From Candidatus Collierbacteria bacterium GW2011_GWA2_42_17 (GTDB lineage: Bacteria > Patescibacteriota > Microgenomatia > UBA1400 > MFAQ01), in contig LCDA01000001.1 of assembly GCA_000998275.1 (NCBI GenBank), positions 116,352 through 180,351 on the forward strand: DNA of 64,000 nt, written 5' to 3'. Below, in pieces: positions 10,777 to 61,594 of this stretch. A program made the position numbers and the translations under genes. Positions within the stretch are counted from its first letter, which is position 1, and every line of letters starts with the position of its first letter. Under the pieces are notes generated by a model. It had not been told where the DNA came from and searched no databases. It saw only the letters and a program-made list of their open reading frames with translations.

Positions 10777-11372
10777 TAGTATTCGGTCGGGATGTTGGCT
10801 GGCATGGTGGGGATGTTTTTCATTACCTCCGAGAGGTCAGTAAAATTAACATCGGTTGGAACGGTGAATTTACTGTTATCAACTATCCAGGGAGAACATT
10901 TGACGTTTACTTTTTCGTCAAAGTTGACAGCTCCTTTTGCCGTGTTATCTTTGGTTTCGGTTGTTCCTTCCGATTCGGTGATTTTCAGTTTCATACCTTG
11001 GTCCTTTTTCTGTGGGTTCCATGTATACATATATGTGCCATCCGAAACCATACTCATATTGACGCTGGGCATTTCTTTGTCGGTGCTAGTAACAATTACT
11101 TCTTGAGCCATTTTTTTGCCGGAGATGTAGATAGTACCTTGGGTATCGGTTTTTGTACCGTCTGTTTCGTCGACAGCTGAAGTGGAGACAGTACACTTTT
11201 GGTTTTGACCCATGGCAAGAAGATCGCGTAAGGAAGATGATTGTGACTGTTCGGTTGGGGTGGTTTTGTCTTCACCGGCTTGGTTTTCGGTTCCAGTTGG
11301 AGTCTTGACAGTACAAGCGGAGAGAAAAACGGCGGAGATGATAACAAGAGAAAAACGAATTTTGTTAATCAT
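10776..11372 (-). CDS. Lipoprotein of unknown function.
   Basis: It has a signal peptide with a lipobox (MINKIRFSLVIISAVFLSAC) and the rest of the protein is hydrophilic. The likely start is Met7 of the tracked ORF. Confidence 0.5.
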   Translation of the reverse strand: MINKIRFSLVIISAVFLSACTVKTPTGTENQAGEDKTTPTEQSQSSSLRDLLAMGQNQKCTVSTSAVDETDGTKTDTQGTIYISGKKMAQEVIVTSTDKEMPSVNMSMVSDGTYMYTWNPQKKDQGMKLKITESEGTTETKDNTAKGAVNFDEKVNVKCSPWIVDNSKFTVPTDVNFTDLSEVMKNIPTMPANIPTEY

Positions 11373-11396
11373 ATATTCGTAGTATACCAATTACTG

Positions 11397-11996
11397 TCAA
11401 GAGTTTTCCAAACTTTTCCAGAGATACAAACAGGCAAGCGAACGGTAGGGACTCCAGATTTGAGAAATGGCTTCAATTTTAATTTTATCTTCCCTATCCA
11501 CTCCATAGAGTTTGGCAACGGCGGCACGAAGCCCAAGGTCTCCAAGGGAAAATGTGTCTTGTCGACCAAGCGAAAAAATAAGGAACATTTCGGCTGTCCA
11601 ACGACCAATACCTTTGACTGTAGTGAGAGAAGAAATTACTGTTTCGTCCGAAAGAAGATGCAGATTTTCCAAAACCAGTTTGTTGGAAACGATTTCTTCG
11701 GCAAGGGACTTGAGATATGAGGTCTTTTGGCGAGATAGCCCGCAAGAGCGAAGGGTCTCATCACTAAGTTTTAATATTTCTTCGGGGCGGGGAGTTTTTT
11801 CTTTGGGAAACAATGTAAGGAAGCGATCAAAGATGGTTGCGGCGGCTTTATTGGAGAGCTGTTGACTAACGATGGCTTCAAGAAGGTCACGAAAGAGATT
11901 GGTCGAAGGCTTTGGCGAAGAAATGGTGTAGTTATCAATAATGCAGGAAAGAACCGGGTCTTGGCGAAGGTGTTTTATTGCAAGTGAGTTTTCCAT
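11397..11996 (-). CDS. HhH-GPD superfamily DNA glycosylase, AlkA (3-methyladenine glycosylase II)-like.
   Basis: A helix-hairpin-helix (VKGIGRWTAEMFLIFSLGR) is followed by a Gly/Pro-rich loop and a catalytic Asp (SLGDLGLR), which fits the AlkA family. Confidence 0.7.
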   Translation of the reverse strand: MENSLAIKHLRQDPVLSCIIDNYTISSPKPSTNLFRDLLEAIVSQQLSNKAAATIFDRFLTLFPKEKTPRPEEILKLSDETLRSCGLSRQKTSYLKSLAEEIVSNKLVLENLHLLSDETVISSLTTVKGIGRWTAEMFLIFSLGRQDTFSLGDLGLRAAVAKLYGVDREDKIKIEAISQIWSPYRSLACLYLWKSLENS

Positions 11997-17200: not shown

Positions 17201-17240
17201 TTTTGTACGCTAGGTCAAATTCCGGTGTGGTCTGGGGCAT
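14238..17240 (-). CDS. AddA/RecB-like helicase-nuclease: a UvrD-type SF1 helicase fused to a C-terminal PD-(D/E)XK, Cas4-like nuclease with a Cys cluster.
   Basis: Walker A is VLAGPGTGKTQVL and motif II is GDEYQDTN. The C-terminal region TGKADRID...VDYKTG carries the nuclease motifs and ends with the cluster CVRCDFRNHC. Length is 1000 aa. Confidence 0.75.
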   Translation of the reverse strand: MPQTTPEFDLAYKKLNDSQKKAVDTIEGPVLVLAGPGTGKTQVLTARIANILKETDTNPESILALTYTDAATREMRERLIKLVGKDGYYVKVTSYHSFCSDIISENPERFSRPKGLSIATDLEKIQLIKEILEGDSFPLLKPAGDPTYYLKYILGAIADLKREGYPIDKYKQLVTLLQEEFELEKGDLKKGALNERETLVGKNTDLLNIYEKYQAKLSAIGRYDFEDMINWVVEAFEKDADFLLAYQEKFQYILGDEYQDTNNSQNRLIFALSSFWGQEANVFVVGDPNQSIFRFQGASKENVREFQKRFPNLKKIVLDQNYRSTQTLLEASAGIINEPPLHHNVKFQDLSLKVAKFTSPLFEDEFIASTLKRKIKAGAKPSDFAVITKDNADIENLVNLFKSKGLPYRLEGGVNILSTPLISQFLKIISLVTTFQSKVDDLDLFLALNFPYFKLNPLSILKISRYAHEKRESLMDTLLDAHPDIDPVVIDVFHRFLGWNSKAATHTVPEMFQMIFQESGLLDYILALPQPIQELNRFGTLFEDVKKQSAAFPGLDLFGYVFNLKTMDENGLKLEEQALIGDNNAVTLTTVYKAKGLEWKTVFIYRFADTHWGNHTKRQMIKLPPGILALEDTDKEDKNAEERRVFYVAMTRAKKNLYLTGSTEYPTSLKMIFPSMFLDEIPKKTRKLIKVGKFQKNAAKILGKLLAIPVSPVLASGEKEYLKEIIKDFKLSPTALNKYLECHYKFKLDNLYRIPRTTPPSMSFGTAVHFALQYLYINLKNTGKVESPKDFLKDFETALRREVLSEADFKNYLEKGQKVLSFYYDYYKDSFIPALFTEKNFGKSLTSQIVLDDIPLTGKADRIDLTNKKEKHVRFVDYKTGQPRTRNDIEGNTKSSNGDYKRQLVFYQLLADLDHSFDYKVTETELQFIEADKGNRFHSERFNITPAEVNDLKKVIREVMASIRSLNFDRTTDYNHCVRCDFRNHCWPNGLPVTQSEEEE

Positions 17241-17244
17241 GGAC

Positions 17245-18234
17245 TTATTCTATGTCTTTTTTATCGGAATCTAAACCGGACTTCAGACTGTGCGAGGACT
17301 CAAGTTTGTTGCCAATCTGATTTAATGTCTGGGAGGTAGTATTCATAGAGTTGTAAGCATTTGTTAAGTGCTTGCCCAGAAGGGTGAAGTCGCCATTTAA
17401 TTTTTCGTAGTCTTTTTGGACGGCTCGTAAAAGAGTAAAGACCTCGGCGGTTTTGCCGGCAATTTTTTGACCTTCTAAGGAAAGAAGGATTGTTTGTAAA
17501 TTGGCATAGAGAGTGGTCGGGGAAACAGGAAAGACACGAGAGTCTCGGCTGAGGCTCATGATTTCTTCCTCATTGACTATTTCGTAGTAGACGGACTCGG
17601 AAGGAATATACATGAGAGCAAAATCGAGAGTCCCTTCTTCGGGAAGAATATACTTGCCGGAGATATCTTTGAGATGTTTTTTAACGTCACGGATAAAGGC
17701 GGAACGGGCTAGTGATTTTTCAGAGGGTGAGGTGGCTTGATATATCTTTTGGAAATTTTCCATGGGAAACTTGGAGTCTATGGGAAGAATACCGGCTTGG
17801 GTTTTGATGGCGGCGTCGACAATCTGGCCACCTTTGAAGTGGTGTTGAAGAGCGTAGCCGGTTTTGGGAAACATCTGGGCGATTAAATCAGTTAGGACTT
17901 GTTCACCAATGTTACCTCTGAGTTTAGGGGACTTTAGATAGTCTTGGAGATCTTTCATGGAGCGACTGACTTCGCCAAAAGCACCGGCTTCTTTTTTGAG
18001 GTCGCCAATGACGGTGGTTGCTTGATCAAGACGGGAGAAAAGTTCGCGGTAATTTTGTTGGAGTGAAGCCGTTGTTGTTCTATTAGTGGTATCGAACGAT
18101 TGCTGGAGAGACTTGAGCCAAGCGTTGAGGGTAGGGTCGGTGTTTGGTTTTTGCAGCTGGGACTTGAGAAGAAAATAGAGAATCAATAAGCCAAAGAAGA
18201 GAAAAGCTATTACAATTGAAGTATCAGTTGACAT
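17245..18234 (-). CDS. rmuC: DNA recombination protein RmuC.
   Basis: It has an N-terminal transmembrane helix and a coiled coil, followed by a conserved core that includes DFALMYIPSESVYYE, which resembles the RmuC motif DFVLMF.P.E. Confidence 0.65.
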   Translation of the reverse strand: MSTDTSIVIAFLFFGLLILYFLLKSQLQKPNTDPTLNAWLKSLQQSFDTTNRTTTASLQQNYRELFSRLDQATTVIGDLKKEAGAFGEVSRSMKDLQDYLKSPKLRGNIGEQVLTDLIAQMFPKTGYALQHHFKGGQIVDAAIKTQAGILPIDSKFPMENFQKIYQATSPSEKSLARSAFIRDVKKHLKDISGKYILPEEGTLDFALMYIPSESVYYEIVNEEEIMSLSRDSRVFPVSPTTLYANLQTILLSLEGQKIAGKTAEVFTLLRAVQKDYEKLNGDFTLLGKHLTNAYNSMNTTSQTLNQIGNKLESSHSLKSGLDSDKKDIE

Positions 18235-26227: not shown

Positions 26228-26860
26228 ATGGCTTACGTCTTAGGCTTTATTTATGCCGATGGAGCCGTGGAGGATTGTAGAAAGTCATCAAGAACTTGTT
26301 ATCTTTGTCTTTCAAATAATGACCTTGATATTCTGAGGGATATTTTATGGGTAATGTCAACTAAGCAAACTATTGTAATTCGAGGTCCTCGAGTCATGAA
26401 AATTGACGATAGAGAGTATTGGTGTAAAACAAATTATTATGTGAGAATTGGGAACAAAGTAATTTATGATGATTTGACTAAACTCGGATTATGCCCCAGA
26501 AAGTCATTGGTAATCGAGTTGCCCGAAATACCCAACGAATTCTTCAGTTATTTTCTGAGAGGATATTTTGATAGTGATGGTTGTATCCATATTGAAAATA
26601 TAAGACGACGCTTAAAGATAATATTCACAAGTGGAAGTAGGAGTTTTCTGGAGAAACTCGGAACATATATTGGCCGTTTAGTAAGCGAGCGACATGTTCC
26701 TATATATACTAATCGTAGATCGTTTCAACTTAGTTACGGAGGAAATTGTGCAAAAAATGTTGCAGCATTGATTTATCAAGATATCGTTTCTGCCCCATAT
26801 TTGAAGTACAAATATGAGAAATATACTAATTATTTATCCACTAAAAAAGTGACTGTTTAA
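26228..26860 (+). mobile_element. Free-standing LAGLIDADG-family homing endonuclease ORF carrying two LAGLIDADG motifs.
   Basis: The two motifs are LGFIYADGAV and LRGYFDSDGCI. The ORF is markedly AT-richer than the flanking gap and tRNA genes. It lies between tRNA-Cys and gap, and no intron or intein context is visible. Confidence 0.7.
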
Positions 26861-31907: not shown

Positions 31908-32507
31908 CTAGAGAGCTGCTCCTTGAAAATTAGGGCAGTTAGCTTTGTACCAAGCCATTGCTTTGGCAGAACAAGAGATTATTTTAGCTTCGTCGAGTAT
32001 TGGCATACAGTCTACCCAACCATTAGCTGGACAGATAAAGTTAGCTGAAGCCGAAGCGGTAGAGATTGGGGTGACTTCCGGAGTAAGAGAGGGAGTAATA
32101 GTAATTATTGGGGTTGGAGTAACAGCAGGAACTTCTGTACTAGACATAGGGAGAAAACGAGCAGCAAGGACTCCAATGAGAATACCAAAGAGAATTAAAG
32201 CTATACCAATAAAAAAGATACGGAGAAAGCCGGAAGAACTAGACGACGAGGGAACCGTTGTTATCGGAAGTGGTGGCATCGGGGGTGTTTCCTGGTACAT
32301 TGGCTGGGAGATCGACTCTGGGGACTGGGACTGGGAGGTTTGATTTGGTGTCTGGGACACTAAGGGTGGATTCGGGTCGCTGCTCCAAGCTGTCGGTGGA
32401 GTTGTCTCTTGGCTTGTCGGGGAAAAAGATGGGGTTGACGTCTGATTTTGGGGGTCGCTGTCCGGGAGAGGATTTTGTGGGGGGTTGATGTTTCGATCTG
32501 GGTCCAT
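31908..32507 (-). CDS. Pro/Ser/Thr/Gln-rich membrane-anchored protein with a small Cys-containing C-terminal domain. The start is uncertain because it overlaps the 3' end of the upstream gene.
   Basis: The N-terminal half is low-complexity, one transmembrane helix is present (IFFIGIALILFGILIGVLAARFL), and the C-terminal region is FICPANGWVDCMP...C...C. About 270 nt overlap out of frame with the ORF at 32239-35469. Confidence 0.35.
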   Translation of the reverse strand: MDPDRNINPPQNPLPDSDPQNQTSTPSFSPTSQETTPPTAWSSDPNPPLVSQTPNQTSQSQSPESISQPMYQETPPMPPLPITTVPSSSSSSGFLRIFFIGIALILFGILIGVLAARFLPMSSTEVPAVTPTPIITITPSLTPEVTPISTASASANFICPANGWVDCMPILDEAKIISCSAKAMAWYKANCPNFQGAAL

Positions 32508-35469
32508 TATTGTTATTTTGATTATTATTAATATTGGTTCCGAAAGTGAGAAGGTTTTTGTTTTTTAAAACATCTAAGACTGATGTTGTAATTCTAAGTT
32601 TACCTCCTTGGGTAGAAGTTTTTGCCAGTTCTAAAGCTTCGTCATAACTTACCCATTTAGAGTCATTGTATTCTTCATCTGAAGGAAATTTCAAATTGGT
32701 AGATGAGGAAGTGGCATAGAGGAAATAATATTTTTTGCCCTTCATGTTGACCTGATTGCCGGAGTCAAGTTTTAGTTCTCGCAACCCTTGTTTATCGGGA
32801 GGAAACTCAATTTTATCGACGGATAAAAGAGTGGGTTTAAAACTTGACTGTTTGACAAAATCTTCACCCAACTCTTCAGTCATTTCACGTTTGAAAGCGT
32901 CGACGAGAGTCTCGTGATTCTCCACTCCCCCTTGTGGCAGTTGCCAGAGTTGATGAATTTTTTGATAAACAAAAAGAATCTTGCCGGAGTTCAAAAAGCA
33001 ACCAACAACACTGGGGCGAAGTCCTTCGGCTCTGTCTTTGTCCAGTTCTTCCAGGGAGGGTTCTTTTGAAAATACTGTTGATGATTGCTTCGTCGCTTCA
33101 TTTCTCTTAATGACTGGGGGTGGGGGTTGTTGCTGTGGTCGATAAGGAGTGGCTTGAGAATAGGAACGGGGTCTGGGAGGTGTGCTGGGGGCATAAATAG
33201 AGGCCTGGGTCATGTCGAGAGCCTCGGTTTTGCGATAGTATTGTTCTTCACTGGCGGCAATAATTTTTTGACGACTATCATCTTTAATTTCCGGAAGTGG
33301 CAGGGTGGTGGCCGAGAAGGGATTAGAGATGGAGGCATTAACAGAGATTTTGACGATGATCTGATAACGAGCAAGGCCAACGAGATCGTCTTGGGTGTAG
33401 AAGTTTCCCAATTCATTCATAAGGCGGTTGGCATCGGCGGCCCCAACTACAAAGCTTATGAGGGTACCGGCATTACCAAAAATAGCATCTTGAATTTCAA
33501 TTGGAAGCTGGGCGGTGTACTGATTGGCAAGAATTAGATTTAAACGATATTTGCGAGCTTCGGAAAGGATTTTTATAAAAGAGGTGGTGGCAAAGTTTTG
33601 AAATTCATCAACATAGAGGAAGAAGTCTTTACGTTCTGTCTCGGCCATGTTGGCACGATTCATGGCGGCAATCTGAATTTGAGAAATAAACATGGCTCCA
33701 AGTAGAGCCGCATTATCTTCACCAATTTTACCTTGAGGCAGATTGAGAATAATAATTTTGCCGTTGTTCATGAGATTTTCAAAATCAACGGTGGAAGTAG
33801 GATGGCTGATAATATCTCTAATTGTGGGTGAAGTAATGAACTGGCCGACTTTGTTTAAGATGGGAGAGATAGCCTCGGACTGAAATTTTTCTGAGTATTT
33901 GTCGTATTCATCATGCCAGAAGTTATGGAGAACAGGATCTTGAACTGCCGAAAGATATTCTTCTCTGAAGGGCTTATTGGTAAGGAGTCGAGGAACATCA
34001 AGAAGGGTGGCTCCCGGCTTACCAACAAGTGTAAGGAGGGTGTTTCTTAAAATATATTCCAACCGAGGACCCCAGGAGTTACCGTAGAGTTTACTAAAAA
34101 TAGAGACTATGCCCGAAGCGACTAGTTCTGAGTAAGCTGGATTTTTAACATAGAGAGGATTGAGATGAAAAGATTTACCAACAACTGAAGGGTCGAGGTA
34201 AGCAACATCATTAATTCTGTCTGAAGGAATGTAGTCTAAGAGGTGCTCGGCCGTGTCCCCGTGAGGATCTACCAAAGCCATTCCTTCACCATGACGAATA
34301 TCGTTAATAGCCATGTTGGCTAAAAGGGTTGATTTACCGGTACCAGACTTACCCAAAATATATACGTGGCGGCGACGATCCTCCCCTTTTTTCATACCAA
34401 AAGAGACAATTCTGTTTTTATATTCTGTTTTGGCAAAGAAATTAATATCCTGCTTTTCCTCTTCGGAGAGATCTTCGGCAATGGGAAGATTTGCCGGTGG
34501 CTCTCCCCTTAAAGTCTTTCCCCAGGCAATACCTTTGATGTTCGCGAGATTTACACCGGGTAAGTGATAAATGGCGGCTATTTCGGCGTAGTTTAGGTAC
34601 TGATATTGATTAGAGTAGCGAGCAGAACGTTCGATAATCATTTCCTTTAACTTTCCGTGAGAAGACGGCTTGACGACTTTAAGCTTAAAGCTATTGCCTT
34701 CGGAAAGAGCGTAGGTACCAAAAGCGGCAGATATTTGAGAAAGAAGTTGCCTGGAGCTCGACTCGCTCTGAGAAATAGCGGCGAGACGAATATCGCAACT
34801 AAAGGCTTGATAGGCAAGTTTTTTCTCGACGAAAGGTTTTTGAGCGTTTGGTTGGGATTTTTCACCTTCGGTGACTGGTTTGGGCTCGAGAGATTTACGA
34901 AGAGCTTTTTGCCAGTTTCCGGGAGCGGCAAAAAGGCAAATTTGAATTACAGCCGCTTGACCTGCCGGAATACGGGAGAGGCTGCCTAAAATGGCGGTCA
35001 TTTGGTCAACCTTTTCGTCTTCGGTGACGTTGAGGGGAAGCTGAGAGGGAGATGAGAGCACCAACTGACCCATTTGAGGCTGGCCGTGAGACAACCAGTC
35101 GGCAAGGTAGTCTTTCATGGGGGTAATGAGAGCAGTTGGATACTGGGCTGCAATTTGAGAACGAACAAGGTGTTCGAGACGTTCCGGACAGGCAATAATA
35201 AAATAGGTAGTTTGACTGAGATTGGCAATTTCCAAGGTAATGGTTTCGTAGGTGTTGAGAAGTCTATCCATGAAACTAGCCTTAAGAGAAGACTTGATGG
35301 AAGCTAAAAACTCAACAAAAGCAGATTGACCCGTAAGTGAGTCTTTGGCAGGACGAATCTGCAGAACCGAATATTTGGGCAAGGCCATAGGATAAGTATA
35401 TACAAAACTAGGCGGTCGCGGGGGTAGAAAGTATAGTTTGAACCGGTTGTTTGGAGCCTGTGTCAACAA
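32239..35469 (-). CDS. TraG/TraD/VirD4-like (TrwB-type) P-loop ATPase, a type IV coupling protein-like DNA-binding ATPase without transmembrane helices, fused to a Nudix hydrolase domain and a low-complexity tail.
   Basis: Walker A is YILGKSGTGKST, followed by LVDPHGD, and Walker B is FFLYVDEFQNF. The C-terminal T4CP-like region reads LANQYTAQLP...GNAGTLISF. After a Pro/Gln linker comes the Nudix box GGVENHETLVDAFKREMTEELGEDF. The final ~130 aa are Asn/Pro/Ser-rich. Confidence 0.6.
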   Translation of the reverse strand: MLTQAPNNRFKLYFLPPRPPSFVYTYPMALPKYSVLQIRPAKDSLTGQSAFVEFLASIKSSLKASFMDRLLNTYETITLEIANLSQTTYFIIACPERLEHLVRSQIAAQYPTALITPMKDYLADWLSHGQPQMGQLVLSSPSQLPLNVTEDEKVDQMTAILGSLSRIPAGQAAVIQICLFAAPGNWQKALRKSLEPKPVTEGEKSQPNAQKPFVEKKLAYQAFSCDIRLAAISQSESSSRQLLSQISAAFGTYALSEGNSFKLKVVKPSSHGKLKEMIIERSARYSNQYQYLNYAEIAAIYHLPGVNLANIKGIAWGKTLRGEPPANLPIAEDLSEEEKQDINFFAKTEYKNRIVSFGMKKGEDRRRHVYILGKSGTGKSTLLANMAINDIRHGEGMALVDPHGDTAEHLLDYIPSDRINDVAYLDPSVVGKSFHLNPLYVKNPAYSELVASGIVSIFSKLYGNSWGPRLEYILRNTLLTLVGKPGATLLDVPRLLTNKPFREEYLSAVQDPVLHNFWHDEYDKYSEKFQSEAISPILNKVGQFITSPTIRDIISHPTSTVDFENLMNNGKIIILNLPQGKIGEDNAALLGAMFISQIQIAAMNRANMAETERKDFFLYVDEFQNFATTSFIKILSEARKYRLNLILANQYTAQLPIEIQDAIFGNAGTLISFVVGAADANRLMNELGNFYTQDDLVGLARYQIIVKISVNASISNPFSATTLPLPEIKDDSRQKIIAASEEQYYRKTEALDMTQASIYAPSTPPRPRSYSQATPYRPQQQPPPPVIKRNEATKQSSTVFSKEPSLEELDKDRAEGLRPSVVGCFLNSGKILFVYQKIHQLWQLPQGGVENHETLVDAFKREMTEELGEDFVKQSSFKPTLLSVDKIEFPPDKQGLRELKLDSGNQVNMKGKKYYFLYATSSSTNLKFPSDEEYNDSKWVSYDEALELAKTSTQGGKLRITTSVLDVLKNKNLLTFGTNINNNQNNNNGPRSKHQPPTKSSPGQRPPKSDVNPIFFPDKPRDNSTDSLEQRPESTLSVPDTKSNLPVPVPRVDLPANVPGNTPDATTSDNNGSLVV

Positions 35470-54474: not shown

Positions 54475-55494
54475 TTACTTTGAGGCAGGTAAAGCATAGA
54501 TGCCGGACTGTTGGGTGACGTTGGTGCCGGTTAAATTTCCTTCGAGAATATAGATGGGAAGGTAGACATTTTGAATTTGAAGATAGCCAATTTGTGATTG
54601 GGAGACAGAAAGATCTATTTTTTTACTGGAAGCTGTTTGAAAATTTACATCAAGATCAGGAGAGGCATTTAATCTTTGAGCAGAGTTAGCTAATTTTTTA
54701 ACATCAACGAAAGGATAAATAACTAATTCCTTGCCTAGGGCGACGGAAGTAAAGCCACCAACAATAGAGATACTATGAATATTTAGATTGTGATCAAGAT
54801 AGAAGGTAAAAACAGCACCAGTTTCCGACTGAGCGAGGACAGGAAATTGATTGATTGACTGATAGAAGGAAACGCGAACAAGATCGGCATTTTCTATGGT
54901 TGAAGGAGAAGAATAAATATTAAAAGTTTTATAGTAATCGACCCTTTGATTTATAAGGGTGGCTTCAACATCTTCACCAAAAAGATCCTTGATGATTTTG
55001 CGAGCGGCAGTGAGACTATTTTCTTGAGTAAAGAGAGGTCCATCTTGAACAGGAGGATTATTGGTGGAGTAGATAATGGAGTTGTTTTTGGTGTTAATAA
55101 CAAGAGAGTGTTTGCTGTTTGACCAGATGGAGATATTAGTGTCTTTGACAGTGACCTTTTGAGAATTTGAAAAACCGAGTAAAGAAGGAAGTCTGTTCTG
55201 ATTATCAGATGAAGTTAAAGGCGAAACAAGTGAGTATTCATAAAGTTTTTCCGGTGTTTGGGGATCTTTAACTTCGTTCCATTTGATATTTAAAACAGGA
55301 GTGGGTAGGGGAGAGGTAGTAGTGGAGGTAGTGGTAACAAGAGAAGGAATAAGAGGTTCGGTGCTTGGAGATTTTTCGGTTTGTAAAACACCAGTAAAGG
55401 CGTTGATAACAATAATTAAGACGACAACAACGGCAAGAATTATTAAGTTGGTTCGGAGTTTTGATTGGGTAAAAAAATTAAGGATGTTTTTCAT
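54475..55494 (-). CDS. Secreted, signal-anchored protein with a Thr-rich linker, function unknown. It is the last gene of the T4SS-like module.
   Basis: The N-terminal transmembrane helix is LIILAVVVVLIIVINAF, followed by TTTSTTTSPLPTP and a ~260-aa extracytoplasmic domain. Confidence 0.35.
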   Translation of the reverse strand: MKNILNFFTQSKLRTNLIILAVVVVLIIVINAFTGVLQTEKSPSTEPLIPSLVTTTSTTTSPLPTPVLNIKWNEVKDPQTPEKLYEYSLVSPLTSSDNQNRLPSLLGFSNSQKVTVKDTNISIWSNSKHSLVINTKNNSIIYSTNNPPVQDGPLFTQENSLTAARKIIKDLFGEDVEATLINQRVDYYKTFNIYSSPSTIENADLVRVSFYQSINQFPVLAQSETGAVFTFYLDHNLNIHSISIVGGFTSVALGKELVIYPFVDVKKLANSAQRLNASPDLDVNFQTASSKKIDLSVSQSQIGYLQIQNVYLPIYILEGNLTGTNVTQQSGIYALPASK

Positions 55495-55503
55495 ATGGTT
55501 ATA

Positions 55504-58167
55504 TTAGTTAGTATAAACCTGAGGTCTATTAGAACAGCTGGTTATACCAGGGTAAAGTTCACCAAGGGGGCAGTTTTCGGAAAGTTGAATTCCACCGGCC
55601 GGACATTGATTGTAAAGAAGACCTTTGTATTCATAGTGAAGGTGAGGTCCCGTTCCAGCAGTACCGGTGGTTCCTAAAATAGAACCAATTTCGACGCTAC
55701 CTCCGACGGCAACATCAATACTGGTGAGATGAGCATAAACAACTTTAAAAGCGGTGCCATCTTCGAGGACAGAATCAATAATGAGAATGTCGGTATTGAG
55801 ATACTCCGATGAAAAACCGGCAAAACTAACAACACCAAAGGTGGTACTAATAACAGGAGTACCAAGAGGGGTACCAATATCAATAGATTGATCATAACCG
55901 GTGTTACCATGAGAACCTTTTCCCCCCGGACCTTGAGTGAGGATATAACCTTCACCAACCGGCCAGGTATTGGGACATCCAGGAAGAATTGTACCGGTAT
56001 AGGCAGTTTTGGGGGTCGATTCAAGTTGAACAAGAGTGGATATTAAAGGAGCAACGACAATGGAGGTGATGTAAAAGAAAAAGACAATAAGAGTACCGGC
56101 GGTAATGATACCAACAGCGGAACTAGCAGCAACCACAGTAGTGGTGCCAAGACCGGAAAAAAAGGAGACTACTCCTCCCGCAAAAGAGGCGATACCCATG
56201 GCGGGGATAGCAAGAACGTCACGAGTTTTTACTTCTTCACCATAGACAGATCTGGCAAGAGCTTTAGTAAAGCCAATAATTTTTTCGCCGACCCAAAAAG
56301 AGATATCAATTAAGACGGCAAGAAGAAGTCCGAGACCGGGAACGACATTGGCAACTTGAGCACCAGCTTCGAGAGCAACTTTGATACCAACTTTGGCACC
56401 GACTTTAACGGCAGCTTTGGTGGCGGCCTGTTGAGCAAGTTTTTTAAAGGTTTCCTTGAGACCGTTTTTGAGAAGCATTTCGGCTCCTTTTTTGAGAGTC
56501 TCGTTTGTAAGGCGTTGGACTAATTGTCTGGTAATAAATTCACCGGCTTTTCGACCCGCCCAAGATCGAAGAGTTCCCCAAGGATCTTGAATAACCCGAA
56601 AAACAGTACCAAAACCTCCGGGAATTTTATCTGAGACTCTTCCAAAAAATTTTGAAACTGAACCGAAAGTTCGGCCAATTCTGGTAGATGTTTGAGAAAT
56701 CTCTTTTCCTAAAAGAGACTGGGAGATCTTTCTGATTTGGCTGCCGGCAGAGTCAAAAATATCTTTGCGTGTGGTATAAAGTTTTCCTAGAGCAGAGTCG
56801 GGTTTATTTTGGGCAAAAAGACGAGCTTTGGTGAGAAGCTGGGGAGTAAGTTCTTTGCCATATAAAAGAACGGCTTGCGGAGACAAATCAGAATTTTGTG
56901 TTTGGGGGGTGTTGAGAAGACTGGCGGCATATTCAGCTTGATAACCTGAGTTGGGACGGAGAGTCCCCGGAAAATTTTGTCGAAGGGCATCTTCAAGAAG
57001 ATGAGCATCATCCATAGGGGTGGGGATATGGGCTTTAATACCGTTAATCTCAAGATTGTTATGAATTGAAACAATATTTTTATTGGCTAGTTCAATTCGA
57101 TCCTGGAGATCTGGATCGTGAGAAAGTCTTTCTTCACGGTTTTTTTCAAAGCCTTTGAAAGACTCCGTTTGTTTGGTTATTAAATCGGTAAGTTGGGTCG
57201 AATGAGATTCTATTGAGGCCGAAAGATGTTCATTTTCAGCAATAAGATTTTTTATTTCAAGAGATAATTTTTTCTTTTCTGATTCGGGCAGAGAGGAAAT
57301 TTCATCTTGGAGACTAATAATTATTTGTTCATTATCGGAAATTTTTGTTTCAGATACGGTAGCTTGACTATTTAAAGAAGTCACTTCTTGATAAATAGTG
57401 GAAACAAAACCTCCGGGAATGGTAGCAAGATTAGTTTTATCCGACTCTGCAAGAGATGAAATGTCGATTTGGAGAGTAGAAGCTTGAATTGCCGTGTCGA
57501 GATCTCGGACACCAACGAGATTAAGTTCGGCTGCTGAGGAAATAATTTGCTCTTGTAATTTAGGAGAGAGTTTGGAAAAGCCAGTATAAGTATGGGCAAC
57601 TTCTTTGATGGCAACGAAGGATGAGTTTAAAGCTTCTTTTTTGGATCCTGATTTAGGAGACCCAAGAGAAACAAGAAGGTCATCTACCTGTTTAAAATTT
57701 TCTCCTTGAGATTGTCTTCTTTCTCGATTGGCCAAAGCAAGATCTTTAATTTTAGAATGAGCGATGGCAATTTTGACTTGTTCGGCAACCGTTTTTTGAG
57801 GACTTGATTTAATTTCTTCACTTTCAAGTAAGGCAAGATTTTGTTGATACTCGGCAACCAGAGCTTCAATTTCCGGAGGAATTGAAGCTGCTTGTTCTTT
57901 AGTTGTTTCCTTTTTTATAACCTCTTCTTTTTCTTTTTCCGCTTGTTTTTCTAGATTGGCGATGTAGTCGGTGACAGCAGAAATAGGAAGATTTTTGAGA
58001 AATTTGGAGTAGCTGTTGGTGAAAAAATATTTTTCGCCAAAGTATTTTTGGGCAAGGGAAAAGATTTTTAAATCATCTTTGGTGAGAGAGGCTTCCGCTT
58101 TTTGAGAACTGAGAAGATCAGTTACTTGATGAAGCTGCTGGATAACAATTTCTTTTCCTGATGCCAT
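55504..58167 (-). CDS. Protein of 887 aa with a long N-terminal coiled coil, a transmembrane cluster and a C-terminal M23 metallopeptidase domain. It is a putative T4SS-associated cell-wall hydrolase, comparable to the PrgK/TcpG functional class.
   Basis: The first ~550 aa are heptad-rich and Glu/Lys/Leu-rich. A hydrophobic block follows, from VPGLGLLLAVLIDISFW to GTLIVFFFYITSIVVAPLISTL. The C-terminal M23 core reads GYDQSIDIG...TGPHLHYEY. Confidence 0.55.
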   Translation of the reverse strand: MASGKEIVIQQLHQVTDLLSSQKAEASLTKDDLKIFSLAQKYFGEKYFFTNSYSKFLKNLPISAVTDYIANLEKQAEKEKEEVIKKETTKEQAASIPPEIEALVAEYQQNLALLESEEIKSSPQKTVAEQVKIAIAHSKIKDLALANRERRQSQGENFKQVDDLLVSLGSPKSGSKKEALNSSFVAIKEVAHTYTGFSKLSPKLQEQIISSAAELNLVGVRDLDTAIQASTLQIDISSLAESDKTNLATIPGGFVSTIYQEVTSLNSQATVSETKISDNEQIIISLQDEISSLPESEKKKLSLEIKNLIAENEHLSASIESHSTQLTDLITKQTESFKGFEKNREERLSHDPDLQDRIELANKNIVSIHNNLEINGIKAHIPTPMDDAHLLEDALRQNFPGTLRPNSGYQAEYAASLLNTPQTQNSDLSPQAVLLYGKELTPQLLTKARLFAQNKPDSALGKLYTTRKDIFDSAGSQIRKISQSLLGKEISQTSTRIGRTFGSVSKFFGRVSDKIPGGFGTVFRVIQDPWGTLRSWAGRKAGEFITRQLVQRLTNETLKKGAEMLLKNGLKETFKKLAQQAATKAAVKVGAKVGIKVALEAGAQVANVVPGLGLLLAVLIDISFWVGEKIIGFTKALARSVYGEEVKTRDVLAIPAMGIASFAGGVVSFFSGLGTTTVVAASSAVGIITAGTLIVFFFYITSIVVAPLISTLVQLESTPKTAYTGTILPGCPNTWPVGEGYILTQGPGGKGSHGNTGYDQSIDIGTPLGTPVISTTFGVVSFAGFSSEYLNTDILIIDSVLEDGTAFKVVYAHLTSIDVAVGGSVEIGSILGTTGTAGTGPHLHYEYKGLLYNQCPAGGIQLSENCPLGELYPGITSCSNRPQVYTN

Positions 58168-58175
58168 GAGTTGAT

Positions 58176-60017
58176 TTAAGTAGTTTGTTGCTTACGTGCT
58201 TCGAGAATTTCCGAGGGTTTAGTGGTGGCCAGAGCATGTTCGTCGGGGGAGGAAATAACTCTTATGGCAACATGGTTTTGTCCAGCAAAGAAAATACCTT
58301 CACCTACACCAGCCGAGACCAAAAGCTGTTTTTCTCCTTGAGAGAGATAAAAGACTTCGGCAATTTGATTGATGGCGGCAGAAGATTGTTTTAGAAGAAA
58401 TTTGAGAGCAGAGTTGGTAATGATGGCTTTACCATAAGGGGAAGCTAAAAAGTCATCTACATTCTGAGAAATGACGGTAACCCCGAGATAGTATTTGCGA
58501 GCACGTTTGACAAAGCCTTGGAGAATTTTGGCAGAGTCTTCGAAACGCATAAGATACCAGGCTTCATCGACAATAAGCATCCGCTTTCGGAGATTTTTGC
58601 GAATCTCGGTCCAGACAAAATCAAGAATCATAAACATAACAATCGGACGGATTTCGTCGGCAAGATCACGCAGAGAAAAAACGGTTATTGGAGCATCAAT
58701 ATTGATATTTGATTGTTGATCAAAAGTGCCCTTGATACTTCCCATGACGTAGCGTTCGAGTCTGGCAGCCAAAACTTTAGCGGTCTGGTCTTCCATACCA
58801 ATGATGGCGCGGTAGAGGTCTTCCATTCGAGGAGGTTCTTGGGTATGAGTGGCAGGATCGTCGGTAATGTTTTTTTGACGATAGGTGAGAACTAGAGCAC
58901 GATTCATAGTGGCTTCTTCCATGGGAGACATAGCACCAATCATTATTTTAAGAAGGGACATGAGGAAGAGGTATTTATAACCCATTTCGTCTTCGGTACT
59001 TTCCGCAGGTCGAGCAATTTGAAAAGGATTAATTTTATGAGGAGAGCTGGAAGAAAAAGAAATATAGTTACCACCAACTGCTTTGGTAACCATTTCATAC
59101 TCATTTTCCGGGTCAAGAATAATAATTTGGGTGTCAAACATAAGAGAGCGGAGAATTTCCAACTTGACGGCGTAAGATTTTCCGGCGCCAGCCGTGGCCA
59201 GAACAAGCATATTGGCATTTTCCAGAGAGAAACGATCAAAAATGATAAGGGAGTCGTTGTGGGCATTAATTCCGTAAAGAATTCCTTGATTGTCGGAGAG
59301 TTCGGAACTGGTAAAAGGAAAGGTGGTGGACAGAGCGGTAGTGTCCATGTTTCGGGTAATCATTAATTTGTCTTTACAGTAAGGAAGGGTGGTCTTGAAA
59401 GCATCCTCCATGGAAAGAGAGGCAACTTTGCTGATGATCAGAAGAGAGGCGAGCATACTTTGAACCTGAGAGGTGACGGTGTTAAGTTCTTTTTCGGACT
59501 CGGCAGAGATACTGATGTAGAGAGAAAATTGAAAAAAACGTTCGGCTCCCTTAACGAGTTGTGCCTGAAGAGACTTGGCATCTTCAAGAGCGGCTTCGGT
59601 AGCTGCTTGGGGAATACGACCCCTTTCAATATCCGTGTTGATCTCGGCTTCCATCTCGGCCAGACGGCGCCTGAGATTGTCTAAGGTGTCTTTGGAGTCA
59701 CTGGGATAGACGTACATAGAAATATCAAGAGAGTGATTGAAGTTTATGAGAGGGGCGAGCCAGTTGGCTGAGACATAGCGAGGATAACCGGTGATAAAGA
59801 GAGTACGGATGTAGTTGTCATCGATTTTTATAAAGGAAAAATCAACTTCAATGGAAGAAGGAGCTAAGACATCCTGAATTGAGGCGGCATTGGCGGTGTC
59901 TTTGATAGCCGAAAGGGGAGCTCGAGGTTTTTCTTCCTTGGGTGTGACAGGAGATGCCGCTACTGTTGGTATAGTTTCGGTCTTTTTGGCACCAAGAGAG
60001 AAGAGATTTAACCCCAT
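58176..60017 (-). CDS. VirB4/TraC/TrsE-family type IV secretion ATPase, short Gram-positive-type form of 613 aa.
   Basis: Walker A is LVLATAGAGKSYAV and Walker B is RMLIVDEAWYLM. The C-terminal motif reads VTVISQNVDDF, and the N-terminal VirB4-type domain contains YIRTLFITGYPRYVSANWL. Confidence 0.7.
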   Translation of the reverse strand: MGLNLFSLGAKKTETIPTVAASPVTPKEEKPRAPLSAIKDTANAASIQDVLAPSSIEVDFSFIKIDDNYIRTLFITGYPRYVSANWLAPLINFNHSLDISMYVYPSDSKDTLDNLRRRLAEMEAEINTDIERGRIPQAATEAALEDAKSLQAQLVKGAERFFQFSLYISISAESEKELNTVTSQVQSMLASLLIISKVASLSMEDAFKTTLPYCKDKLMITRNMDTTALSTTFPFTSSELSDNQGILYGINAHNDSLIIFDRFSLENANMLVLATAGAGKSYAVKLEILRSLMFDTQIIILDPENEYEMVTKAVGGNYISFSSSSPHKINPFQIARPAESTEDEMGYKYLFLMSLLKIMIGAMSPMEEATMNRALVLTYRQKNITDDPATHTQEPPRMEDLYRAIIGMEDQTAKVLAARLERYVMGSIKGTFDQQSNINIDAPITVFSLRDLADEIRPIVMFMILDFVWTEIRKNLRKRMLIVDEAWYLMRFEDSAKILQGFVKRARKYYLGVTVISQNVDDFLASPYGKAIITNSALKFLLKQSSAAINQIAEVFYLSQGEKQLLVSAGVGEGIFFAGQNHVAIRVISSPDEHALATTKPSEILEARKQQTT

Positions 60018-60044
60018 GATTTAAGTATAACCTAAGGTCATTAA

Positions 60045-60698
60045 TTAGGAATTAGCGGGGATATTGGTGGGGATTGAACTTATGGTGGTTGAGCTCTGGT
60101 TGTAGATGGTGTAGAAGAAGGTAACGAGTTCGCTGGTAGTGAGTTGAGAAGCTTTGAGACCAATACGGGCAAATTGTCTAATCAAATGGTCTCGACGAGG
60201 ATAAAGAACGGTAGAGGCCTTTTCTTCAATATAGACAAGGTCAAAGGGCGGTTTTTGAGGAGCTTTGGCAAAAGGATTAAAAGATGATTTTGAGAGACCG
60301 AGTTCAATTTCGGAGAAAGGAATAATGACATAAAATTTCTTTTCCAAAACACGATTTTCCTTGACTAGAGATTTAACAAATTGACGATAAGCCAGAAGTT
60401 GCTCCTTTATTTTTTGTGAGGAGACGGATTGAATACGAGTGTCAATAAGGCCAAGGTAGTCAGAGATATTTTTCCTTTGGGAACGGACAAGAATTTGAAT
60501 AGGGAAAGAAAGAGAGTTTAAGAGACCGGCGTAGGCATAAATGGTGGCATCTTGTTCTTCTTCGGAGAGAAGGTTGAAGTTTATAGCTGTAGTTTTGAGA
60601 ACCAGAGCAGCTGAGCCATCTTTAAGGAAAACAAGGTGATCTTTAATGGCGTAGATATCGAGATGTTCTTGGGTGGAGGCTTTGATGTTGTCGGGCAT
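60045..60698 (-). CDS. Hypothetical soluble protein of 217 aa encoded between the PrgI-like protein and VirB4; a T4SS-module component of unknown role.
   Basis: The call rests on operon context only. No motifs were recognised. Confidence 0.3.
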   Translation of the reverse strand: MPDNIKASTQEHLDIYAIKDHLVFLKDGSAALVLKTTAINFNLLSEEEQDATIYAYAGLLNSLSFPIQILVRSQRKNISDYLGLIDTRIQSVSSQKIKEQLLAYRQFVKSLVKENRVLEKKFYVIIPFSEIELGLSKSSFNPFAKAPQKPPFDLVYIEEKASTVLYPRRDHLIRQFARIGLKASQLTTSELVTFFYTIYNQSSTTISSIPTNIPANS

Positions 60699-60700
60699 GT

Positions 60701-61594
60701 TTATTGAGCTTGAATTTTTAGAGGTTTAACAATTTCTCCGGTGAGTTCTAAGGAGTAGGGAGCAAAAGAAAAACCTTCTTTTTCGGCAAGAATTTGAAAT
60801 AGACCGGAGTCTAGAGGGCGAGCAAACATAAACTGTCCGAGTTTGTTGCTCTTGGTAGCACGGAGAGTGAGGTTGTCTTTTTTGATTTCGACCAAAACAG
60901 AGTCAAGAATGTGGCCGGAGGGAGTTAGGGTAAGGCCAACGAGTGTATTGGGTGTGGTGGAAGTAAAAGGAATGGGAAGATTTACTGTGGGGGCGGGAGT
61001 TTTTGTTGATGTGACAGGTTGGGTTGGGGGTAGGGGCTGAGAGGAAACGTTGGGTGTTGGGATTGGTTCTTGAGTGGTTGGCATTGGTTCCGGAACAACA
61101 ACTGTTGGGGTAACAACTGTTTCGGTAATAGAGGTAGTCACAATTGATTGGGGAACGGGGGTGTTTGGCACGATTTCTGGTTGCTTTGGAGAGATAACAG
61201 GTGGTTGGGTTATTTCAATACGAGCATTGGTAACCGGTTGAGTGACTTGGAGATTGTTTTCTTTGGTGGGGACGGCGGTTTCGGTTCCGGCAGCAGTGGC
61301 CGGAGTTCTTTTCCAGGAGTATTGGGTGGGTGAGTAGATTGATTTAATGAAGGCAATCAACCAGACATCAAGAGAACGACCTTGAACAGGGAGAAAGGCC
61401 ATACCAACACCAAGAAGAAGAAAAGCAAAAACAATGGGATATTTAAAGAAGAAGGGTAAGGGAATACTGTAGGCAATGATGGCAAAAATGATGCAGACAC
61501 CAAGAGAAGCAAATTGTTTTAAAGTCATGTCACCAATTAGCCTGAAGCGGTAACTACTGATGTCTTGGGGTAAAGGATGCTGTTGAATGGCCAT
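60701..61594 (-). CDS. VirB3/PrgI-like two-transmembrane protein with an N-terminal cytosolic peptide, extended by a Thr/Pro-rich linker and a C-terminal beta-rich domain.
   Basis: After the cytosolic N-terminus (QQHPLPQDISSYRFRLIGDMTLKQFASL) come transmembrane helices VCIIFAIIAYSIPLPFFF and IVFAFLLLGVGMAFL. A ~110-aa Pro/Thr/Val/Gln linker follows, then a folded C-terminal domain. Confidence 0.4.
   Translation of the reverse strand: MAIQQHPLPQDISSYRFRLIGDMTLKQFASLGVCIIFAIIAYSIPLPFFFKYPIVFAFLLLGVGMAFLPVQGRSLDVWLIAFIKSIYSPTQYSWKRTPATAAGTETAVPTKENNLQVTQPVTNARIEITQPPVISPKQPEIVPNTPVPQSIVTTSITETVVTPTVVVPEPMPTTQEPIPTPNVSSQPLPPTQPVTSTKTPAPTVNLPIPFTSTTPNTLVGLTLTPSGHILDSVLVEIKKDNLTLRATKSNKLGQFMFARPLDSGLFQILAEKEGFSFAPYSLELTGEIVKPLKIQAQ

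Follow-up and report, generated by a model that had tools for sequence, protein, structure and literature searches.

The gene under study lies on the minus strand of a 64,000-nucleotide stretch of DNA (the window) and corresponds to protein KKS32840.1 of Ca. Collierbacteria GW2011_GWB2_42_12. Its features are collected in Table 1 together with those of a T4SS module elsewhere in the window, which is a possible unlinked partner. The initial annotation had described one ORF of 1076 aa, and a single ORF is indeed present (32239..35469, minus, when called mechanically from TTG 35469), but an internal ATG (MALPKYSV..., window 35388) is the start in all 40 aligned homologs and the NCBI model KKS32840.1 begins at the same codon, and for this reason the real gene is most likely the shorter one of 1049 aa. 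With the ATG start, 19 nt separate the gene from the preceding SPFH gene, in place of the 62-nt overlap that the TTG start would create. The overlap of the 3' end with the ORF at 31908-32507, which had been flagged for checking, is only 41 nt when the annotated 123-aa start of that ORF is used.

The groES and groEL genes lie downstream and the SPFH and YidC genes upstream, as first reported, and the order SBP-YidC-SPFH-gene-GroES-GroEL is kept in relatives down to 60% identity. The ORF represents a genuine and conserved gene of an ultra-small bacterium of the CPR/Patescibacteria.

Table 1. Positions in the window of the ATPase-Nudix gene, its domains and motifs, and the T4SS module
Feature	Coordinates	Strand	Remarks
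Whole gene	32239..35388	minus	1049 aa + stop; KKS32840.1 / UU94_C0001G0069
N-terminal domain	34519..35388	minus	residues 1-290; PF26449/DUF8128; VirB4-N-terminal-domain-like alpha/beta fold
P-loop NBD	33214..34461	minus	~residues 310-725; HerA/FtsK superfamily, T4CP type
Walker A GKSGTGKS	34330..34353	minus	invariant in family alignment
VDPHGD motif	34255..34272	minus	D-P-H-G-D invariant across family alignment
Walker B FLYVDE	33604..33621	minus	followed by FQNF
Pro/Ser/Thr/Gln-rich linker	33073..33210	minus	~residues 727-772; disordered
Nudix domain	32557..33054	minus	~residues 779-944; NudH/RppH/Ap4A-hydrolase subtype
Nudix box GGVENHETLVDAFKREMTEELGE	32863..32931	minus	7/7 canonical positions intact
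Asn/Pro-rich disordered tail	32242..32538	minus	residues 951-1049; last residues are the conserved GSLVV
Terminal peptide GSLVV	32242-32256	minus	GSLVV-type ending in Nudix clade
T4SS module	54475..61594	minus	possible unlinked partner
PrgI/VirB3-like	60701-61594	minus	T4SS module
TrsD-like	60045-60698	minus	T4SS module
VirB4	58176-60017	minus	T4SS module
M23 hydrolase	55504-58167	minus	T4SS module
Hypothetical	54475-55494	minus	T4SS module

A VirB4-Type N-Terminal Domain and a T4CP-Type Motor

The N-terminus of KKS32840.1 is a folded alpha/beta domain that was found to have the VirB4-type N-terminal domain fold, and PF26449 (DUF8128) is a precomputed match on this protein and on nearly all of its relatives. 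The P-loop NBD that follows contains Walker A, VDPHGD (the characteristic motif of the HerA/VirB4/VirD4 clade), and Walker B exactly as the initial annotation had described. When the family profile was compared with the PDB, the matches were TrwB (6e-9) and DotL (3e-6), with no VirB4 chains found, and a single-sequence phmmer search with the ATPase protein also matches TrwB and DotL. The AlphaFold2 model has a seven-helix insert within the NBD (~residues 418-528), which may correspond to the all-alpha domain inserted in the NBD of T4CPs. The Walker motifs are a likeness to the T4CPs (VirD4/TrwB/TraD/DotL), and Foldseek gives TM-scores of 0.5-0.6 (normalized to the T4CP chains) over ~400 residues. 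The earlier description as a TraG/VirD4-like ATPase holds insofar as TrwB and DotL are the nearest relatives, but Pfam TrwB_AAD_bind (20.1 versus a cutoff of 20.5) and TraG-D_C (20.8 versus 22) both fall just short and DUF87/HerA-central (25.5 versus 23.2) is the sole Pfam ATPase model above its curated cutoff. The NCBIfam T4CP models are likewise short of theirs (conju_CD1115, 34.5 versus 250; SXT_TraD, 30.9 versus 366), and PF10412, PF02534, or PF12696 are precomputed on some relatives. We assign the ATPase to the HerA/FtsK superfamily of P-loop proteins, with the T4CPs as its nearest relatives as judged by sequence. The likeness to VirB4/TrwK/TraC lies in the fold of the N-terminal domain and does not extend to a sequence-level match to the VirB4 profiles CagE_TrbE_VirB, P-loop_TraG, and TIGR00929, the latter two being far under their cutoffs (E=0.013 and E=0.0086, respectively) and hhalign against the window's own VirB4 giving a probability of 1% and no similarity; moreover, that separate, bona fide VirB4 holds the place in the T4SS operon beside VirB3.

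A canonical conjugative coupling protein that exports relaxase-bound DNA would account for the T4CP-type NBD and for the CONJScan t4cp2 match, away from virB4, that is listed for KKS32840.1 in the supplement of PMC12102498, but we regard this role as very improbable. As had been noted at the outset, there is no transmembrane segment in KKS32840.1 (maximum 19-aa Kyte-Doolittle hydropathy, 1.37), and the 290-aa VirB4-type domain stands in place of the N-terminal anchor of the T4CPs. No relaxase gene was seen near the ATPase-Nudix gene, and the chromosomal housekeeping locus carries no signs of a mobile element. PMC12102498, moreover, counts no more than 109 relaxases across 103 Patescibacteria genomes, and it concludes that the patescibacterial T4SS is specialized for tasks apart from conjugation. 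A cytoplasmic DNA translocase with no relation to a T4SS, which like HerA/FtsK would serve in recombination, in repair, or in the handling of the chromosome, with an arm that binds DNA ends and a Nudix domain that sanitizes nucleotides or processes DNA 5' ends, is also unlikely, if less so. It would agree with the DUF87 result and with the Foldseek match to HerA at 1e-11, and with aspects of gene order considered below, but the N-terminal domain is VirB4-like and is not the HAS-barrel of HerA, and at the profile level the family resembles TrwB and DotL rather than HerA or FtsK.

The Tethered Nudix Domain

The presence of both domains in one polypeptide, as originally claimed, is borne out by a Pfam NUDIX score of 47.5 bits (cutoff 21.1), by the AlphaFold2 model, in which the Nudix domain has a pLDDT of ~90, and by recurrence in relatives. 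Motifs, composition, and predicted disorder all agree with the Pro/Gln linker, textbook Nudix box, and Asn/Pro tail that had been described, with both linker and tail disordered in the AlphaFold2 prediction and the box intact against the consensus GX5EX7REUXEEXGU. By full-domain comparison the domain is of the NudH/RppH/Ap4A-hydrolase type: it aligns over its full length with the Ap4A hydrolase 1F3Y (1e-7) and E. coli RppH (8e-5), its top NCBIfam matches are RppH models, and it shares with RppH, NudH, and plant-type Ap4A hydrolases the canonical box and the flanking blocks (L/Y)RP-V-G, WQ-PQGG, and (K/Q)K-(Y/W)F. It differs from RppH/NudH in being tethered to a large ATPase, where those are free enzymes of ~160 aa, and in scoring far under the NCBIfam RppH equivalog cutoffs (best 38.1 bits versus 116-259).

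From the end of the core to the WxLPQGG motif of the Nudix domain there are 106-186 aa in the 27 proteins measured, and the low pTM of the AlphaFold2 model (0.48) indicates no fixed inter-domain geometry. A tether this long, at over 100 residues, also fits two functionally independent activities. Such independence is the core of a Rosetta-stone explanation, in which a housekeeping RppH/NudH, concerned with mRNA 5'-end decay or Ap4A clearance, was joined to a conserved neighboring ATPase gene in a streamlined genome. We judge this to be rather unlikely, for all that the linker is long and disordered, the Nudix domain is a complete and canonical NudH-type enzyme, CPR genomes are compact, and the gene sits within a housekeeping run; the evidence against it comes from the relatives.

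Distribution of the Fusion and of the Core Family

Among the 120 closest clusters at 90% identity, 95 carry the ATPase-Nudix fusion, and since these come from NCBI, JGI, ENA, and Logan assemblies, an error of assembly at the domain junction, for which a check had been advised, is ruled out as its source. The suggested survey of related genomes shows how restricted the fusion is, as a Nudix arm was found in one of 150 diverse family representatives and is confined to one Collierbacteria-level clade. All 7 canonical positions of the box are kept in the subclade of the window and 2-5 of them in many sister lineages, and in other sister lineages the domain is lost or replaced; therefore, catalysis cannot be central to the core function of the family. 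Degeneration or loss of this kind is also not expected of an essential housekeeping RppH, and no standalone NudH homolog lies beside the core gene in non-fused relatives; both points speak against the Rosetta-stone explanation.

The ATPase core, in contrast to the Nudix domain, is widespread. The core family is Patescibacteria-specific and near-ubiquitous in the phylum; at species level it is present in at least 600 genomes, with every major CPR group represented, and it forms 6,100 clusters at 50% identity (E<=1e-30). What occupies the C-terminal arm varies, the slot holding a zinc finger (9 of 51 genome loci; 11 of 95 representatives), an S1 domain (at least 4 of 95 representatives), a Nudix domain, or nothing, and one locus (L004) has S1 in the very syntenic slot of the Nudix domain. 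Thus, the architecture that was initially called unusual is so in its clade-specific Nudix domain but not in its near-ubiquitous ATPase core or in having a variable arm. Zinc finger, S1, and Nudix modules all belong to types whose usual targets are nucleic acids, and their exchange, including S1 in the same slot in sisters, looks like selection for a module class and not like an accidental join. A conserved terminal peptide is found in 22 of 95 family extensions, whereas the background rate is 1 in 1045 windows. A variable C-terminal extension with a short conserved peptide at its end is a further likeness to the T4CPs, and it resembles the C-terminal tails by which TraD and DotL recruit substrate adaptors, although in KKS32840.1 the tail bears an enzyme.

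By its t4cp2 and PF26449 matches, KKS32840.1 is a member of the Patescibacteria "T4CP homologs" of PMC12102498, and it differs in its Nudix arm, which is restricted to the one Collierbacteria-level clade. That study counts 5,713 such homologs in 2,918 genomes, only 148 of them near virB4, and raises their possible exaptation. It also reports, which counts against the function proposed below, that the T4CP homolog of Ca. Southlakia epibionticum (DUF8128 or other) is non-essential for epibiotic growth while other T4SS genes of this organism are essential. The study does not mention a Nudix domain, and in the passages considered here neither the VirB4-like N-terminal domain nor the variable C-terminal modules are described.

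Gene Neighborhoods

The VirB4-type module that had been placed about 20 kb away is present, but at a distance of ~23 kb and 21 CDS (module at 55.5-61.6 kb). In three Microgenomates loci (L008, L009, and L012) the core gene divergently adjoins PrgI-TrsD-VirB4, the T4SS genes there being 46-58% identical to the window's module and the cores being the nearest non-Collierbacteria orthologs (47-49% identity), and on a short contig (L015) the PrgI part alone adjoins the core gene. Most family members, KKS32840.1 included, lie away from virB4, which speaks against a T4SS-linked model; the family also differs from the T4CPs in being usually unlinked to a T4SS, and KKS32840.1 in being unlinked to a relaxase.

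Saccharibacteria share a conserved array of dprA-topA-HTH(sigma70_r4/HARE)-core, in which TopA was found at 23, the HTH protein at 25, and DprA at 9 of 82 loci. This synteny could be a matter of operon inheritance with no functional coupling. The array fits a HerA/FtsK-like translocase, as do the scarcity of copies near virB4 and the exaptation raised in PMC12102498, while the direct adjacency of the closest outgroup orthologs to PrgI-TrsD-VirB4, and the lack of a NurA-like nuclease near the gene in the window, argue against it.

The initial suggestion of a defense module finds no contextual support in the gene neighborhood. An anti-phage ATPase of the MADS mad8/HerA type, whose Nudix domain would be the effector and break down a nucleotide signal or an NAD-derived molecule, is suggested by the PADLOC mad8 match (E=6.7e-19, residues 330-665), by weak matches to HerA-type defense models, and by PDC-S07, which matches part of the Nudix domain. 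We nevertheless hold it to be highly unlikely in view of the stable housekeeping synteny, a near-universal rather than patchy presence in the phylum, and a mad8 match that spans the generic P-loop core alone. No defense-type genes adjoin the gene, and the protein differs from the HerA types in having neither the HAS-barrel nor NurA, Sir2, or another partner.

Proposed Function

Based on the domain composition and the neighborhoods, we tentatively favor, as a possibility that falls short of probable, a soluble, T4CP-like ATPase that handles nucleic acids and carries a tethered module for 5'-end processing, and that works on the T4SS, uptake, or recombination side. The protein would be a soluble, probably ring-forming NTPase in which the DUF8128 VirB4-type domain precedes the VirD4/T4CP-type NBD and a long disordered C-terminal arm ends in the short conserved peptide. 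We propose, as the most likely role of the family, the handling of single-stranded nucleic acid on the cytoplasmic side of the patescibacterial T4SS or of a DNA-uptake/recombination pathway, with the VirB4-like domain as the docking element that replaces the missing membrane anchor. The arm would bear lineage-specific substrate modules, and in the Collierbacteria clade this is the NudH/RppH-type Nudix domain, whose catalytic residues are complete here and which is predicted to clear the 5' end of the handled nucleic acid of pyrophosphate or a nucleotide cap, or else to hydrolyze Np4N.

Implications

Patescibacteria represent a large share of bacterial diversity, and they do not synthesize nucleotides and rely on the nucleic acids of their hosts. 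A bolder proposal, and one we consider distinctly improbable, is that the DUF8128-T4CP family is a cytoplasmic receptor or motor for the uptake of host nucleic acid that enters via the T4SS, a coupling protein in reverse, with the arm modules capturing or processing the strand. The Nudix domain of the Collierbacteria would then take the 5' triphosphate or cap off host RNA after import and so license 5'-monophosphate-dependent decay and nucleotide salvage. If true, this would provide the uptake machinery still lacking for the feeding on host RNA that has been reported (bioRxiv 10.64898/2026.06.21.733656), the mechanism of which its authors call unresolved.

The family of this soluble T4CP-like ATPase is among the most widespread uncharacterized ones of the phylum and has so far been counted simply as a "T4CP homolog." The combination of a VirB4-type domain that may serve in docking, a VirD4-type motor, and interchangeable arm modules, in the company of dprA-topA or PrgI-TrsD-VirB4, makes it a testable nucleic-acid-handling candidate at the T4SS/competence interface, and the joining of a VirB4-type N-terminal domain to a VirD4-type NBD bears on the evolution of coupling proteins from VirB4-like ancestors. 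The Nudix fusion also opens an uncommonly direct biochemical route, since what the tethered enzyme prefers as a substrate should reveal the cargo of the motor. It is a lineage-specific variant of a very large uncharacterized family that may handle incoming nucleic acids.

Gene model and domain architecture

The initial annotation described a TraG/VirD4-like ATPase fused to a Nudix hydrolase in the ORF 32239-35469, and this mechanical ORF (minus strand, 1076 aa, TTG start) is present in the window. The gene is most likely 32239-35388 (1049 aa), because an internal ATG (MALPKYSV...) is the start in the NCBI model and in all 40 of the 40 aligned homologues, and the TTG start at 35469 was dropped in favor of the ATG at 35388. 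The target protein is an exact match to KKS32840.1 / UU94_C0001G0069 of Candidatus Collierbacteria bacterium GW2011_GWB2_42_12 (GCA_000997955.1). When ORF 31908-32507 is given its annotated start (123 aa), its large 3' overlap with the gene comes down to 41 nt, and tblastn found no second copy of the gene in the window. An assembly error or a frameshift where the domains join, for which a check had been advised, is ruled out since the fusion is common to independent NCBI, JGI, ENA, and Logan assemblies, with PF00293 (Nudix) carried by 95 of the 120 nearest clusters at 90% identity, and since linker lengths of 106 to 186 residues occur among the 27 proteins measured.

The four motifs quoted in the initial annotation are all at verified coordinates, there is indeed no TM helix (maximum 19-residue hydropathy 1.37), and the linker and tail described as Pro/Gln- and Asn/Pro-rich are Pro/Ser/Thr/Gln-rich and Asn/Pro-rich, respectively. 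In an AlphaFold2 model (40 homologues; mean pLDDT 75.5), three domains fold with confidence and two segments are disordered, and the ATPase and the Nudix domain are both folded in one polypeptide, as had been claimed.

Features of the target protein and of the T4SS module in the window
Feature	Location	Strand	Description	Basis
Walker A			GKSGTGKS, target protein	coordinates verified
VDPHGD motif			target protein	coordinates verified
Walker B			FLYVDE-FQNF, target protein	coordinates verified
Nudix box			GGVENHETLVDAFKREMTEELGE, target protein	coordinates verified
N-terminal domain	residues 1-290			AlphaFold2 model
ATPase	residues about 310-725		helical insert about 418-528	AlphaFold2 model
Disordered linker	residues 728-773			AlphaFold2 model
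Nudix domain	residues about 780-945			AlphaFold2 model
Disordered tail	residues 952-1050			AlphaFold2 model
T4SS module	54475-61594	-	Patescibacteria-type; PrgI/VirB3-like; TrsD-like (217 aa); VirB4 (613 aa); M23-peptidase protein (887 aa); hypothetical (339 aa)	

The N-terminal domain, missed in the initial annotation, is Pfam PF26449/DUF8128 by precomputed annotation. Modeled alone (pLDDT 89.9, pTM 0.89), it has nine TrwK/VirB4 chains as its nine best Foldseek matches (E 8e-8 to 3e-5), and the full-length model aligns with TrwK over about 860 columns (E 1e-13). For the ATPase, the TrwB/TraD/TraG-type assignment made at the outset stands in part. A family profile of 150 diverse members searched against all PDB sequences matched TrwB (6e-9), DotL (3e-6), and, marginally, HerA, with no VirB4 among the matches, and NCBIfam gave weak VirD4-like and TraD matches; however, the T4CP Pfam models lie just below their cutoffs (TrwB_AAD_bind 20.1 versus 20.5, TraG-D_C 20.8 versus 22), and DUF87/HerA-central is the only ATPase model above its own (25.5 versus 23.2). 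From these fold and profile matches we conclude that the core, comprising DUF8128 and the ATPase (NBD), is a hybrid of a VirB4-type N-terminal domain fold and a VirD4/T4CP-type NBD. The protein is a paralogue neither of the VirB4 encoded in the window nor of ORF 61682-63871, as hhalign found no similarity to either. We regard it as highly improbable that this protein, with its TrwB- and DotL-related NBD and no TM helix, is a canonical conjugative T4CP.

The Nudix domain passes its Pfam cutoff (47.5 versus 21.1). Over its whole length it can be aligned with the plant-type Ap4A hydrolase 1F3Y (1e-7) and with E. coli RppH (8e-5), including the flanking (L/Y)RP-V-G, WQ-PQGG, and (K/Q)K-(Y/W)F blocks. 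All of the top NCBIfam models are RppH models, at scores far below the equivalog cutoffs, and by its sequence the domain is NudH-type with an intact box. A housekeeping RppH may have been joined to the ATPase in a Rosetta-stone fusion with no coupling between the two, which we consider possible although unlikely.

Family breadth and earlier records

Among the families specific to Patescibacteria, that of the DUF8128-NBD core is one of the large ones. It was found in at least 600 genomes by a pattern scan using one genome per species, and the 80 best loci cover Collier-, Gottesman-, Levy-, Shapiro-, Ames-, Dojka-, Berkel-, Peregrini-, Gracili-, Buchanan-, Uhr-, Moranii-, and Doudnabacteria together with many Saccharibacteria. 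When 1.84 billion representatives at 50% identity were searched exhaustively with HMMER, 6,100 clusters matched with E ≤ 1e-30 and 21,672 with E ≤ 1e-3. Phage relatives (phrog_5156; Bacillus phage G gp156; SPO1 gp27.4) cover the ATPase only, are uncharacterized, and were set aside as offering no functional lead.

Fifty of the 150 representatives begin directly at the ATPase, without an aligned DUF8128, and at three loci (L045, L070, and L076) a separate 437-507-aa ORF, which might encode an N-terminal domain that has split off or diverged strongly, lies between an HTH gene and the ATPase. At two others (L039:1394-6063 and L041:1350-5974), a core match of roughly 720 aa is spread over about 4.7 kb of DNA, which indicates that the gene contains a large insert, perhaps an intein, an intron, or a mobile element. 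Several loci (L005, L006, L009, L010, L014, and L017, among others) come from TPA MAGs titled “uncultured Gammaproteobacteria” or “Pseudomonadales” that carry CPR-type genes and Collierbacteria-like synteny; these labels are probably wrong, as probably is that of the family protein P0008 (Spirochaetia).

According to a survey of Patescibacteria T4SS and T4CPs (PMC12102498, Microb Genom 2025), there are 5,713 VirD4-type T4CP homologues in 2,918 genomes, only 148 of them near virB4, and their exaptation cannot be ruled out. The survey notes that the homologue of Ca. Southlakia epibionticum, which may or may not be a DUF8128 protein, is non-essential. The supplementary table has KKS32840.1 as a t4cp2-profile match “not near virB4”: it is #696 and VirB4 is #675, 21 CDS apart and one gene past the survey's 20-CDS window. 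A second T4CP-profile match, KKS32632.1, is elsewhere in the genome. The survey makes no mention of Nudix, and literature searches on DUF8128, on Nudix with coupling proteins, and on Patescibacteria with Nudix found nothing relevant. Existing records list the target as a T4CP homologue and also as a DUF8128 / “NUDIX domain-containing” protein; no description was found of the VirB4-NTD and VirD4-NBD hybrid, of the modular arm, or of its RppH-type Nudix occupant specific to one clade.

The C-terminal arm and the history of the Nudix domain

The arm, the C-terminal extension beyond the core, is a modular, variable slot, and the Nudix fusion is restricted to one clade. Most Microgenomates proteins from outside Collierbacteria end 0-7 residues past the core, and an extension of at least 60 aa, mostly of low complexity, is present in 95 of the 150 representatives (median 132 aa over all 150). 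Representatives were scanned with Pfam on the extensions only, and with local HMMs. Of 51 genome-locus extensions scanned with Pfam, 9 have a treble-clef zinc finger (PF23477), 4 have Nudix, and 1 has S1, and the 95 representative extensions hold CxxC...CxxC modules (11/95), a GG-KWY-G mini-motif (7/95), and S1 (at least 4/95). Nudix is frequent among the closest clusters but occurs in exactly one of the 150 diverse representatives (P0032, standing for the Collierbacteria clade). A terminal peptide, [PAS][GD][QEDR]x[IV]x[FLI], lies within the last 18 residues of 22 of the 95 extensions, compared with 1 in 1045 background windows. Examples at the extreme C-terminus are LQPGQSIKL and IKPGEVVEFK (P0140, P0177, P0183, P0195, P0205, P0218, and others), and alternative endings in the family are VPEDLLKxxLE and WTQ[LFI]. 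The Nudix clade has a conserved [GD][ST]L[IV][IV]-COOH ending, GSLVV in the target protein.

Collierbacteria synteny is fixed (SBP, hypothetical, YidC, SPFH, target gene, small protein, GroES, GroEL), and the slot holds Nudix at six of the loci (L001-L003 and L005-L007) and S1 at L004. In an approximate neighbor-joining tree of the core, built without bootstrap support, Nudix-bearing, S1-bearing, and arm-less forms are interleaved. All seven canonical Nudix box positions are intact in the subclade of the window and a few others; many sister lineages keep only 2-5 of the 7 (E7 to Q/K/L, R15 to K/H/Q, G22 to T), with E19 or E20 occasionally lost, and the NudH-specific blocks outside the box stay conserved. 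Two proteins in the homologue alignment (P0091 and P0103) align across the Nudix region with 2-3 of the 7 positions and no Pfam NUDIX match, and in both the domain seems to be in decay. The history is most simply read as a single early acquisition of Nudix, after which the domain repeatedly decayed, was lost, or was replaced. In this genome it has probably stayed catalytic, but catalysis is not required universally.

Genomic neighborhoods

The gene lies, as initially placed, between SPFH and YidC upstream and groES/groEL downstream, in a closely packed series of housekeeping genes on one strand, with spacings of 3, 17, 11, and 19 nt followed by the 41-nt overlap. A terminator scan found no convincing internal terminator in this run, and a promoter scan was uninformative apart from a promoter-like site upstream of groES. 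The initial annotation had also raised a defense module, and a PADLOC match to mad8 (7e-19) would fit a defense ATPase. However, this match is confined to the P-loop core and the gene stands among housekeeping genes in conserved synteny rather than in a defense island, so that we give such a role very little credence; a domain description of mad8 was not found in the accessible text of the MADS preprint.

The distant VirB4-type module reported earlier is present, with the PrgI/VirB3-like, TrsD-like, VirB4, and M23 genes at 55.5-61.6 kb, and the PMC12102498 supplement places eight VirB2-like genes 7-17 CDS from this VirB4. In the closest orthologues from outside Collierbacteria (47-49% identity; L008 from Gottesmanbacteria, L009, and L012), the core lies immediately beside a PrgI, TrsD-like, VirB4 block, in divergent orientation. 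This block shares 46-58% identity with the module in the window; on a further short contig (L015), PrgI alone is visible beside the core. In the window, the position held by the DUF8128-ATPase at these four loci is taken by ORF 61682-63871 (plus strand, 729 aa), which is divergent from the PrgI-like gene and has no Pfam match.

A second recurring association, with DNA-processing genes, is found in Saccharibacteria, where the order dprA, topA, HTH (sigma70 region 4 and HARE-HTH), core is conserved across L034-L084 (e.g., L053, L063, L072, and L074), often followed by a convergent FtsW-MurG block. Over 82 loci, the partners are the HTH protein in 25, TopA in 23, and DprA in 9. The HTH-core pair reaches into Parcubacteria lineages, there preceded by a SecDF-PPIase fusion, and in Shapirobacteria topA and dprA are convergently downstream of the core. 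None of the dprA/topA/HTH partners is within the window. A translocase of DNA metabolism independent of T4SS would be another role for the core, and we judge it unlikely.

Elsewhere in the window, a 210-aa ORF beside GAPDH (26228-26860, plus strand) has a weak precomputed LAGLIDADG_3 (homing endonuclease) match in the source gene table. Every 2-kb bin has a positive GC skew (0.03-0.39) though genes are on both strands, and the skew falls to 0.03-0.05 at 28-32 kb around groEL. An ordinary-looking DNA-repair cluster at 5777-7735 (plus), 10114-11996 (minus), and 14238-18234 (minus) encodes a UvrD-type helicase, UDG-family and HhH-GPD glycosylases, RmuC, and an AddA-like helicase-nuclease (1000 aa, UvrD and PD-(D/E)XK).

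Proposed function

We put forward, as a plausible but tentative reading, that the core would be a ring NTPase that works on single-stranded nucleic acid. Its VirB4-like NTD may stand in for the absent TM anchor by docking to inner-membrane components of the T4SS; in R388 the VirB4 NTD contacts VirB3 and VirB8. T4CP C-terminal tails recruit substrates and adaptors, and by analogy the arm may present a substrate-binding or substrate-processing module, which in Collierbacteria would be a Nudix domain acting on the substrate 5' end (PPP, NAD, or Np4N cap) or on Np4N. The initial annotation was sound in what it observed and is only partly supported in how it interpreted this.

A cultivated patescibacterium is reported to take up host RNA, possibly via T4SS-like tubes, and to salvage it via PNPase and kinases, the uptake mechanism being unresolved according to the authors (bioRxiv 10.64898/2026.06.21.733656, 2026 preprint). 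With its RNA-type modules (S1, RppH-like Nudix) or zinc fingers, and with either the T4SS operon or dprA-topA as neighbors, the T4CP-like soluble ATPase is an obvious candidate for the cytoplasmic receptor or motor for imported nucleic acid, a purely conjectural role that we consider a long shot. If true, the Nudix arm would make imported RNA eligible for decay that depends on a 5'-monophosphate.
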